Shown piece after piece: positions 21,001 through 23,782 of a stretch of 32,000 nt of DNA. A program made the position numbers. How positions within the stretch are numbered: position 1 is the first letter of the stretch; each line of letters opens with the position of its first letter. The DNA lies in contig NC_009922.1 in assembly GCF_000018325.1 (NCBI RefSeq), positions 1,080,517 to 1,112,516 on the forward strand, in the 5' to 3' direction. The stretch is from Alkaliphilus oremlandii OhILAs (GTDB lineage Bacteria; Bacillota; Clostridia; Peptostreptococcales; Natronincolaceae).

Positions 21001-23782
21001 GGTTTTAAAAAAATTACGTCATTCCAACGAATGCTAGAAAAAGAGGGAACTGAATTTTATGTCATGATATTAAATAAACTTTTTTAAATAAAATAATATT
21101 TACATATTCAGAATAGTATGATATCATACTGTGCAATAATATAATCATAAAGGCTGTGAAGAGAAGAGTAGGTAAAGATATTCTTTAACAGAGAGCTCTG
21201 GTAGCTGTGAAAGAGCAAAGAACAATTTACTGAAACAAGTCTCGGAGCTTCATACGGATTTTTATATGCAATATATAAATTGATGCTATGACGATTGTTC
21301 CCGTTACAGAACTAGAGTATAACCCTGTTAAAAAACAAGGCGTACTTAAAGAGATTAATATGGTGACATATTAATAAACTGAGGTGGCAACACGAAGCGA
21401 TCGCTCTCGTCCTCAAGATGATCAATCTTGGAGGTGAGGGCTTTTTTATATGGAAAAATATTTAGTATGGATAGGACAGAGTAAAATATGAATGAGGAGA
21501 GGATATTATGACGAGAGCGATGGAAGATAAAGATGATTGTACAGAAGTAATTTATGATAGACCAAAGTTTCCAAAAAGGGCGGTCATTACTGCTGGAATG
21601 CCTTATGGAAATAAAGAACTGCATTTGGGACATATTGGTGGCGTATTCATCCATGCGGATACCTATGCAAGATTCTTGCGGGATAGAATCGGTAAAGAAA
21701 ACGTTATTTTTGTATCTGGTACCGATTGCTACGGTTCCCCAATTGTAGAAAGTCACGGTCAATTAGTAGACAGTGAAAGCTTTAAAGGAGGTATTGAGGA
21801 TTTTGTTGAACATTATCATCATCTGCAAAAGAAGGTTTTAGAAGAATACCATATGGATATCGATCTATTTGCGGCTTCTAGCTTGGGGGCTGCCGTCAAA
21901 ATCCACAAGGAAGTATCCAATGAATTTATAGAAAAACTCTATTCAAATGGACATATGACTAAAATAACCACATCACAATTTTATGATCCAGAACGGAATG
22001 TTTTTTTAAATGGGCGTCAAGTAATCGGAAAATGTCCCATTGAAGGTTGCTCTTCAGAAAGAGGCTATGCGGATGAGTGCTCTTTGGGTCATCAGTATAT
22101 GCCTGTGGATCTGATTGATCCGAAGAGCACCCTTTCTGGAAAAAAACCAGAGATGAAAGATGTGACAAATTGGTATTTTAAATTAGATGAGTATTATAGC
22201 TTGCTCAATGAATGGGTAGCGTACATTGAAGAGATGCCGAATTGTAGAACCTCTCTAACAAGAACTATTAAAGAGTTTTTGAAGCTTCCTGTGATCTACG
22301 TAAAAAAGGATCAAAGTGATGTGTTAAATTCTATGAAAGATATTCTTCCGAAACATAGGCTGATCGATGAAAATAACAAAGCATCCCTTGTATTAGAATT
22401 TGAAAATATAAAGGAGAGAGAAGAAGCATGCTTATTATTGGCGGAGAAATCCATTCGTTTTAGAACGGGAAAGACATTGGTGCCTTTTAGACTAACTGGC
22501 AATATTGAATGGGGAGTTCCAGCACCTTCTATTGATGGCATGGATCATCTTACTTTTTGGGTATGGCCGGAATCCCTTTGGGCACCCATATCATTTATCA
22601 AGACATATCTCAACCAATTGAATCGTGGAAAAGATGCTTGGAAGGACTGGTGGTGCTCTAAGGAGAGTGAGGTATATCAATTTATAGGGGAGGACAACAT
22701 CTATTTTTATGGGTTAGCAGAGATGGGGATGTTCATGGCAATGCAAGGAAAAGATCCCATAGCGTATCCACCGGAAGGACAGCTTCAATTGCCGAATTTA
22801 ATTGCAAACAGCCATGTATTGTTTCTAGATAAAAAAGCAAGTAGCAGCGGTAATGTAAAGCCTCCTACAGCAAAAGAATTATTGGATTATTATACTGTGG
22901 ATCAATTGCGAGCTCATTTTTTGGGGTTAAGTTTAGGTGTTCGTAGCGCCAGCTTTCAGCCAAAACCATTGAATCCCAAAGCTTCAGAAAAAGACAAGGA
23001 TCCTGTGCTGAAGGAGGGAAATCTTCTGACCAATGTCTTAAACAGAGTTGCCAGATCTTGTTTTTATACGGCCCAACAATATTATCATGGGAAGATACCG
23101 ATAGGGAATATAAGTGAGGATGTGATGAGGGAGTCCAAAGATACAATTCTCCAGTTTGAAAAGTTAATGTATCGATATGAGTTCCATACGCTAATGGATC
23201 TTATGGACGTATACATTCGCAACATGAATAAACGCTGGGTAAAAAATATGAAGTTGGCAGAAGAGAATCAAGATTCGAAGCTGCATATGCAAGTTGTAAT
23301 TGACGGTTTTCATCAGCTTCGTACCGCTATAGTTTTGATGCATTCCATTGCACCGGAAGGGACAGAAATGGTAAGGACATATTTAAATTTAAATGAAGAT
23401 TTCTGGGATTGGCATAAGATTTTTCAGACCGTATATGACTTTATGGAAAAACCAGAAGAGCATCCACTGAAATTCCTAGAACCTAAAGTAGATTTCTTTA
23501 AAAAGCATCCAAGTCAACTACTGTAAAAATCATCAGAGAATGGAATCGTTAAGAGGCATATAAAGACTTATTTATAGTAAAACATGTATAAAGAGAGATT
23601 CTAATGTTCTTTATACATGTTTTTTATTTTCAAATAGAATATGGAATTTTTTATCAGAGGATTTTTGTTTATAAATATTACTTTTGAAACATCAATTGAA
23701 TACTTCTACTGGATATTTTTCACAAGTAAAATTATAATAGAACTAACAAAATAGAAAATCTAAATGATGCAATAACCAATAG

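Follow-up and report, generated by a model that had tools for sequence, protein, structure and literature searches.

A glutamine-specific T-box upstream of a MetRS-like gene in Alkaliphilus oremlandii points to a candidate MetRS-derived synthetase for tRNAGln

In the 32,000-nucleotide (nt) stretch of the Alkaliphilus oremlandii OhILAs chromosome analyzed here (NC_009922.1, positions 1,080,517 to 1,112,516; hereafter the window), a gene for a 672-amino-acid (aa) protein with the fold of methionyl-tRNA synthetase (MetRS) lies behind a T-box leader, leader 1, whose specifier codon is CAA, a glutamine codon. The T-box specifier of a gene for an aminoacyl-tRNA synthetase (aaRS) normally names the cognate tRNA of the enzyme. 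The glutamine specifier is conserved upstream of orthologous genes, the protein family is clearly separated from MetRS, and in other genomes the gene is linked to gltX, which encodes glutamyl-tRNA synthetase (GluRS), and to mnmA. From these observations we infer the binding and charging of tRNAGln, and glutamine as the amino acid; in other words, the family would be a MetRS-derived synthetase that charges tRNAGln, most likely directly with glutamine, a reading to which we assign a probability of about 0.58.

Leader 1 is, by its architecture, a complete and conventional transcription-attenuating T-box. The Rfam covariance model RF00230 (gathering score 93 bits) matches it over its full length, and the alignment places the stem I helices, the K-turn, the AG bulge, the distal loop and both sides of the specifier loop (Table 1). 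Downstream, an intrinsic terminator overlaps the 3' strand of the antiterminator helix, such that the two folds are mutually exclusive; this bulged terminator was missed by a simple terminator scan and was revealed by direct folding, and a fold equally good as that of its hairpin was obtained in 1 of 200 shuffles. Leader 1 thus shares the complete canonical architecture of known T-box leaders of aaRS genes, such as Bacillus subtilis tyrS and glyQS, but differs from them in that its specifier is for Gln and the gene that it regulates is not homologous to that of glutaminyl-tRNA synthetase (GlnRS). In the mechanism that we propose, uncharged tRNAGln(UUG) would pair with CAA in stem I and, through its 3' G73-CCA end, with UGGC in the antiterminator bulge; this pairing would stabilize the antiterminator, the terminator would not form, and the 672-aa gene would be transcribed.

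A second T-box in the window, leader 2, serves as an internal control, because the same model reads the expected AUG in the same genome, before a canonical MetRS gene 4 kb away. The 540-aa product of that gene passes the TIGR00398 cutoff (Table 1), scores 580.1 against a cutoff of 587 with NF001100, and in alignment keeps H301, the SRD motif and the PW anticodon motif of MetRS. An initial annotation of this DNA had assigned CAA to leader 1 and AUG to leader 2 by positional homology, had found no ATG anywhere in 21217-21248, and had read UGGC in the antiterminator bulge of leader 1 against UGGU in that of leader 2. The covariance-model alignment, run to locate the specifier, bears this out, with CAA and no Met codon at the specifier position of leader 1; indeed, all of the sequence statements in that annotation that were checked, including a 672-aa MetRS-fold gene behind leader 1, are correct. 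The glycerol kinase gene glpK (23813-25327) sits between the two T-box-regulated MetRS-family genes, and therefore each synthetase gene has its own leader and the two do not form one operon.

Is the glutamine codon a peculiarity of A. oremlandii? Among 81 family loci examined, 17 leaders besides that of the window lie directly upstream of a family gene. Fifteen of the resulting 18 (window, L002, L004, L005, L007, L027, L032, L039, L049, L057, L058, L063, L064, L074 and L081) are aligned by the Rfam model at 93.9-114 bits; the leaders of L001, L006 and L013 fall slightly under the Rfam threshold, have the same anatomy and are counted with the others. The initial annotation had asked for orthologous leaders to be inspected for CAA or AUG, and the specifier position holds a Gln codon in all 18, CAA in 13 and CAG in 5, and never AUG, such that codon variation is limited to the synonymous third position. 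The codon is followed by a purine in 17 leaders (by U in L005) and then by the lower helix. Pairwise identity in stem I is 48-96% with a median of 63%, and the shared Gln codon is therefore not due to recent common ancestry. The CAG codons, found mostly in GC-richer leaders, abut the GAA S-turn without a spacer (GAA-CAG-R), and it is this direct contact that fixes the register as Gln. Two other registers, AAC (Asn) and ACA (Thr), were considered and rejected; in the five CAG leaders they would consume bases of the S-turn, and the Asn register, previously called less likely, can thus be dismissed outright.

The association also holds in reverse. When metagenomes were searched for the 17-mer GAAACAAGCCTCGGAGC, taken from the 3' strand of the Gln stem I, 20 of 80 matches were real T-box leaders, 19 of them with downstream sequence, and 18 of these 19 have a family member downstream (identity 52-62% to the 672-aa protein, 21-32% to canonical MetRS). 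The predicted partner of the tRNA discriminator base is C in 11 and U in 7 of the 18 orthologous leaders, and C in 12 and U in 8 of the metagenome leader set; because G alone pairs with both C and U, G73 is predicted. The argument from UGGC to a G73 tRNA, first made from leader 1, thus holds in a stronger form across leaders. G73 is an identity element of bacterial tRNAGln, and tRNAMet has A73 (PMC9976931). Even without enzymology, a coherent class of Gln-specific T-boxes and its main target gene are defined. Two observations on the leader class may be added. In the one exception among the 19, on metagenome contig Ga0153921_1000397 (L156:100-1231), a complete Gln T-box with CAA, UGGC and a terminator stands before an open reading frame (ORF) for an MFS_1 transporter; this may reflect a small T-box regulon that responds to Gln and perhaps includes a transporter related to glutamine. 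In the Herbinix sp. metagenome-assembled genome (MAG) JAQSYO01, two family paralogues (L032 and L039) each lie behind their own CAA/UGGU T-box.

The protein itself resembles MetRS in fold and departs from it in detail. Its single Pfam domain is the MetRS catalytic domain (tRNA-synt_1g), and the top Foldseek matches of its AlphaFold model (predicted template modeling score 0.73) are all MetRS structures, at TM-scores of 0.6-0.74. It nevertheless fails all of the NCBIfam MetRS equivalogs (237.8 against a cutoff of 587 for NF001100; 191.3 against 336 for TIGR00398), and GlnRS and GluRS models, including TIGR00440, give no match to it. Identity to the neighboring MetRS is 31% over 209 aligned N-terminal residues and 21% over the C-terminal ∼300. 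Compared with solved class Ia MetRS structures (Escherichia coli, 1QQT; Pyrococcus abyssi, 1RQG), the family shares the Rossmann fold, the Zn-knuckle CP domain, the HIGH motif, a KMSKS-type loop, the α-amino-binding Asp and a helical C-terminal domain, but it is at most 22% identical over the full length, carries an inserted module of 68 aa, and in the case of the 672-aa gene is predicted to be regulated via a tRNAGln T-box and not via tRNAMet. We compared motifs by alignment, using E. coli MetRS crystal numbering (Table 1). The residues that in MetRS meet the methionine sulfur (H301) and stack on C34 of the CAU anticodon (W461) are lost, and anticodon-helix residues N512 and R516 are invariant. 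Y401 and E405, which occupy the H301 and W305 positions, are invariant in the 23 close family members aligned; more distant representatives have Q, A or G.

These data bear directly on the most conservative interpretation, namely that the gene encodes a plain second, divergent MetRS and that CAA has been misread or is irrelevant. Fold and best sequence matches are those of MetRS, and some databases do label members 'methionine--tRNA ligase'. We nonetheless consider this interpretation highly improbable, as the unanimity of the Gln codons stands next to an AUG found by the same model in the adjacent MetRS leader, UGGC leaders cannot pair with A73 of tRNAMet, the Met-sulfur His and the CAU-anticodon Trp are gone, and all of the curated MetRS models fail.

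What amino acid would the remodeled pocket accept? A useful comparison comes from PyrN, a hydrazine synthetase in which Arg425, equivalent to H301, holds the γ-carboxylate of glutamate (10.1101/2025.08.22.671884; PDB 9l8v); the H301 position is thus a proven specificity determinant of the MetRS scaffold. The two Arg positions with which PyrN binds Glu are F363 and Y401 in the 672-aa protein, and the acidic E405 is nearby; the pocket should therefore be better suited to a side chain that is polar and neutral, such as that of Gln, than to Glu, and we take it as probably favoring Gln. This comparison matters for a variant of our proposal in which a tRNAGln-specific enzyme would charge its tRNA with glutamate, the product then being amidated by GatCAB and the adjacent gltX serving tRNAGlu only, as an analogue of Helicobacter GluRS2. 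A Gln T-box and gltX linkage would fit glutamylation as well as they fit direct glutaminylation, and the MetRS fold can accept Glu, as PyrN with Glu-AMS demonstrates (PDB 9l8v). We regard glutamylation as unlikely: the Arg residues are replaced as described, the invariant E405 is unfavorable for a carboxylate, and no GatCAB gene occurs in any flank, though flanks of ±6 kb are uninformative on this point.

A role in tRNAGln biology receives support, independent of the T-box, from the genomic neighborhood of the family. A gltX gene is found near the family gene in 21 of 80 loci and is the recurrent neighbor in lineages that lack the T-box. It lies directly upstream, overlapping or with a gap of at most 28 bp, in 14 loci (upstream loci include L014, L017, L018, L022, L023, L029, L030, L033, L035, L041, L051, L053 and L062), directly downstream within a few bp in five (L024, L046, L047, L070 and L080), and further off or convergent in three, for example ∼600 bp away and convergent on the Alistipes contig L071. 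That the two genes adjoin in either order is an argument for selection on their joint expression. In four Oscillospiraceae/Ruminiclostridium loci the neighbor is mnmA, 54-57 bp downstream in two and within ∼900 bp in two more. MnmA, the tRNA 2-thiouridine(34) synthase, makes s2U34 on tRNAGln, tRNAGlu and tRNALys. The T-box specifier, the gltX operons and the adjacency of mnmA are three independent lines of evidence from largely non-overlapping sets of genomes, and they converge on the biology of Glx tRNAs, with tRNAGln as the specific candidate. The earlier suggestion of a paralogue with altered specificity is likewise supported by this linkage, together with the remodeled amino-acid pocket and anticodon site.

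The gltX neighbors are themselves of some interest. They score 315 and 507 bits with TIGR00464 (gltX_bact; cutoff 290) and come in two subtypes: in the first, ∼545 aa long, the C-terminal region is extended and divergent; the second, of ∼484 aa, has a standard appearance. The longer of the two, which barely passes the model at 315 against 290 bits, may itself be specialized. The position of Arg358 is Arg in the neighbors of L014 and L022 by HMMER alignment and, as inferred from the motif, in the other 19; Arg358 is a signature of discriminating GluRS (PMC2978374), but Borrelia burgdorferi GluRS also has Arg in the alignment and the effect is reported to be lineage-specific (PMC3927822), and we have not used this result as support. 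Motifs of GlnRS, GatA and GatB were absent from the flanks of family loci within ±6 kb, a distance too short to be informative.

The same neighbors can be accommodated if tRNAGln or aminoacyl-tRNAGln is the substrate of the protein but primary charging falls to some other enzyme; the protein could then be, for example, a tRNA-dependent amidating or ligating enzyme, an aminoacyl transferase that modifies the anticodon in the manner of GluQRS (YadB), or a proofreading factor. Such aaRS paralogues are known (GluQRS is among the NCBIfam matches), mnmA and gltX tie the gene to Glx-tRNA biology in general, and non-standard chemistry is suggested by the lost Arg of the SRD motif and by the extra module, a predicted β-α-β-β-α-β element that matched no family when searched alone against Pfam. 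Against such a role, the predicted control by the charging state of tRNAGln is simplest if the gene restores charging, and the HIGH motif, the KMSKS-like loop and the α-amino-binding Asp are kept, as expected for activation of an α-carboxyl group; we give a non-charging role a low probability.

A further departure would be an amino-acid ligase that has the MetRS scaffold but needs no tRNA, similar to hydrazine synthetases or MshC and serving glutamine-related metabolism; its gene would have come under a Gln T-box in the way that biosynthetic and transporter genes do. Activation of Gly, Glu, Ser, Asn and other amino acids by MetRS-like domains without tRNA is documented, and the Gln T-box before an MFS transporter indicates that the leader class is not confined to synthetases. 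In PyrN and the Spb40/Tri28 MetRS-like domains (PDB 9l8v), retuning of the scaffold to other amino acids has even made use of the same positions in the pocket, Arg425 of PyrN being the counterpart of H301 in E. coli and of Y401 in the 672-aa protein. Those proteins, however, are tRNA-independent, fused to or paired with cupins, and encoded in secondary-metabolite clusters, features not seen in the 672-aa family; no cupin domain or N-hydroxylase partner was found, among flank genes not all of which are annotated. Moreover, the conserved neighbors gltX and mnmA encode tRNA enzymes, the anticodon-helix residues are invariant, and the protein is far closer to a real MetRS (P. abyssi MetRS, its best solved relative, E = 3e-44) than to PyrN (E = 6e-07). 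The spread and conservation of the family are also housekeeping-like rather than typical of secondary metabolism, and altogether we find a tRNA-independent ligase quite improbable.

Charging of tRNAGln is favored over these alternatives because the class I core is intact, the residues for Met and CAU are lost, regulation is predicted to depend on tRNAGln, and the gene is linked to GluRS; direct glutaminylation is the simplest version. In this proposal the MetRS-derived family would have kept the class I catalytic apparatus and rebuilt its amino-acid pocket and its anticodon-recognition surface. Several points weigh against the proposal. The AlphaFold2 model is of moderate quality (predicted local distance difference test (pLDDT) score 66.7), and the pocket was judged from the alignment, not from coordinates. 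Gly stands in place of the catalytic Arg of the SRD motif, and the chemistry may therefore differ from that of a standard synthetase; as noted, MetRS-like domains with tRNA-independent functions do exist in the hydrazine synthetases. There is also a sister group (P0155, P0171, P0187 and P0190; loci L083 and L084) of 645-679 aa and 28-31% identity that has the ∼68-aa insertion, M31, F363 and Y401 and keeps PYANGP, T/S-R-D and KMSKS. Because this group has MetRS motifs and shares the Tyr and the insertion, both predate the Gln-linked family, which weakens the pocket argument; Tyr and insertion alone are not proof of lost Met specificity. The sister group could be an unusual but genuine MetRS or another retargeted paralogue, and its members P0155 and P0190 lie in genomes without T-boxes, where context offers no regulatory information. 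No tRNA gene occurs in the window, nor did ARAGORN find tRNAGln in the 60 related loci L001-L060. Finally, a second GlnRS would be redundant if all host genomes carry GlnRS; Bacteroidota, in which the family appears in Alistipes and Tannerellaceae MAGs, usually have GlnRS, and known Firmicutes carry either GlnRS or GatCAB, or both of them (PMC3927822).

The family is large. At least 120 clusters (90% identity) are 64-76% identical to the 672-aa protein, most of them named 'class I tRNA ligase family protein' (a PGAP name), and a scan of one genome per species places the family in at least 595 species. Among the matches listed, most are from Bacillota (Oscillospiraceae, Ruminococcus, Ruminiclostridium, Herbinix, Lachnospiraceae and Erysipelotrichaceae), and the others, at 53-68% identity, are MAGs of Spirochaetales, Alistipes, Tannerellaceae, Lentisphaerae, Acidobacteriota, Anaerolineales, Sumerlaeota and Atribacteria. 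Identity across phyla is 53-76%, and in a 50%-identity library the family collapses to a handful of full-length representatives, conservation of a degree typical of housekeeping enzymes. Members at 53-63% identity are found in MAGs of non-T-box phyla that usually encode GlnRS (L071, Alistipes, on a 203-kb contig; L069, Tannerellaceae; L012, L015 and L056, Spirochaetales; and L077, L068, L075 and L008), an occurrence that suggests lateral transfer and possible redundancy or replacement. Four long members (P0084, P0130, P0125 and P0038), in which no extra domains were found, probably have mis-called starts.

Two routes to Gln-tRNAGln are known: direct charging by GlnRS, and charging by a GluRS that is non-discriminating (ND-GluRS), followed by GatCAB. 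A more ambitious claim, which we hold tentatively and at slightly less than even odds, is that the family constitutes a third route, a GlnRS whose origin lies in MetRS (class Ia) and is independent of the canonical, class Ib GlnRS, that is widespread in anaerobic Bacillota, that has spread laterally to other phyla, and that is co-transcribed with GluRS in some lineages and controlled by tRNAGln T-boxes in others. Canonical GlnRS (TIGR00440) would share with it the predicted tRNA (tRNAGln, G73, anticodon YUG) and the predicted product; no homology was detected beyond the class I fold, and a helical bundle takes the place of the GlnRS β-barrels at the anticodon domain. Helicobacter pylori GluRS2 and the ND-GluRS/GatCAB route offer a parallel, as there too a second synthetase for tRNAGln exists alongside GluRS (predicted here, with gltX as conserved neighbor), but GluRS2 is a GluRS paralogue, whereas the 672-aa protein is a MetRS paralogue whose pocket lacks the basic residues expected for Glu. 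One specificity served by unrelated lineages has a precedent in class I LysRS alongside class II LysRS. The LysRS case crosses classes and is biochemically demonstrated, whereas the present one would lie within class I and is deduced from sequence and context.

Neither a T-box nor a paralogue of a class I synthetase is new in kind; the novelty would lie in their combination and in the MetRS-derived tRNAGln synthetase that it implies. NCBIfam (June 2026) holds no model for the family, and in full-text literature neither the family nor a MetRS-like gene with a Gln T-box upstream was found described, though an earlier mention may exist. Surveys from 2008 and 2013, the latter recognizing 18 specificity groups, reported a Gln specifier for no synthetase gene; Wels et al. 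2008 saw no T-box upstream of tRNA-dependent amidotransferase genes and found the GlnRS gene in only one analyzed genome. In TBDB, Gln is one of the least common specifiers and carries no functional comment. If our reading is correct, then Gln-tRNAGln formation, a textbook case of alternative routes, gains a third, independently evolved solution and a rare instance in which two unrelated synthetase lineages share one specificity. Thousands of genes labeled 'MetRS' or 'class I tRNA ligase family protein' would receive a corrected annotation, and pathway-completeness calls would change for many MAGs from the gut and from anaerobic digesters. Additionally, a natural example of a retargeted class Ia pocket and anticodon domain would be useful for synthetase engineering.

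Table 1. Features of the two T-box leaders, of the genes that they regulate and of mnmA neighbors (window coordinates unless a locus is named; residue numbers refer to E. coli MetRS and to the 672-aa protein)
Feature	Position	Strand	Basis or detail
Promoter-like site TTTACA-17-TATCAT with extended TG, ∼20 nt 5' of leader 1	21099..21127	+	Consensus scan
T-box leader 1 (full-length match)	21147..21417	+	RF00230, 110.9 bits, E = 5.9e-24, model positions 1-219
Leader 1 stem I	21153..21248	+	Structure line of covariance-model alignment
Stem I basal GC pair and K-turn	21155-21160 with 21244-21246	+	Covariance-model structure
Stem I lower helix	21161-21164 with 21240-21243	+	Covariance-model structure
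Specifier loop, 5' side, AGAGUA	21165-21170	+	Covariance-model alignment
Stem I upper helix	21171-21176 with 21226-21231	+	Covariance-model structure
Stem I AG bulge	21187-21194	+	Covariance-model structure
Stem I distal loop	21200-21211	+	Covariance-model structure
Specifier loop, 3' side, GAA-A-CAA-G (S-turn GAA, spacer A, codon, conserved purine)	21232..21239	+	RF00230 alignment
Specifier codon CAA (Gln); predicted partner, tRNAGln anticodon UUG	21236..21238	+	RF00230 alignment
Antiterminator helix with 7-nt T-box bulge GUGGCAA (21384-21390)	21380..21416	+	Fold, -10.8 kcal/mol
UGGC, predicted partner of 3' G73-CCA of uncharged tRNA	21385-21388	+	Bulge sequence
Intrinsic terminator: hairpin 21403-21441 and U6 at 21442-21447	21403..21447	+	-26.5 kcal/mol, z = -3.25
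Ribosome-binding site GAGGAGAGG of 672-aa gene	21494-21502	+	Sequence
Regulated gene, 672-aa MetRS-fold class I synthetase paralogue	21508..23526	+	Pfam tRNA-synt_1g, Foldseek
Pocket, L13 to M31			Alignment
Pocket, Y15 and W253 to Y33 and W353, kept			Alignment
HIGH motif H39-L-G-H42 (family H-[L/F]-G-H), both His invariant	21622..21633	+	Alignment
α-Amino-binding Asp, D52 to D73, kept			Alignment
Zn knuckle C176, C181, C191, H195 in family; present in E. coli MetRS			Alignment
∼68-aa insertion, residues 258-325, absent from canonical MetRS	22279..22482	+	Predicted β-α-β-β-α-β module, pLDDT 82-88
Catalytic motif, S-R233-D to T330-G-N332, invariant in family			Alignment
Pocket, K295 to E395			Alignment
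Pocket helix Y401...E405	22708..22722	+	Y401 replaces Met-sulfur His H301; E405 replaces W305
KMSKS-equivalent loop K443-A-S-S-S447	22834..22848	+	Alignment
Anticodon helix, N391 and R395 to N512 and R516, invariant			Alignment
P-W461 motif, which stacks on C34 of the CAU anticodon; missing in family, with variable E/Q/L at the aligned position			Alignment
T-box leader 2	25422..25672	+	RF00230, 124.5 bits
Leader 2 specifier AUG (GAA-A-AUG-G)	25511-25513	+	RF00230 alignment
Leader 2 antiterminator bulge UGGU	25642-25645	+	Sequence
Canonical MetRS, 540 aa, regulated by leader 2	25726..27348	+	TIGR00398, 532.5 bits against cutoff 336
mnmA in four Oscillospiraceae/Ruminiclostridium loci	L019:7049-8116, L021:7887-8774, L040:8848-9924, L044:5316-6389		

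A few further features of the window and of the family loci deserve mention. The promoter-like site upstream of leader 1 is a pattern match only, of a kind not enriched relative to shuffles. In six Oscillospiraceae/Ruminococcus loci (L025:4913-5887, L026, L031, L034, L037 and L038), a protein of ∼325 aa with weak similarity to the flagellin lysine-N-methylase FliB (74 bits, cutoff 85) is encoded 35-110 bp upstream of the family gene. In Proteiniborus sp. MB09-C3 (L081:7882-9372), a stand-alone Amidase gene (PF01425, GatA-like) diverges from the T-box-regulated gene, an arrangement not conserved elsewhere. Lastly, an [FeFe]-hydrogenase cluster at 4860-12717 of the window, comprising a NuoE-like 2Fe-2S protein, a NuoF-like subunit, the hydrogenase large subunit, radical SAM maturases of the HydE/HydG type and HydF, indicates a strictly anaerobic host.

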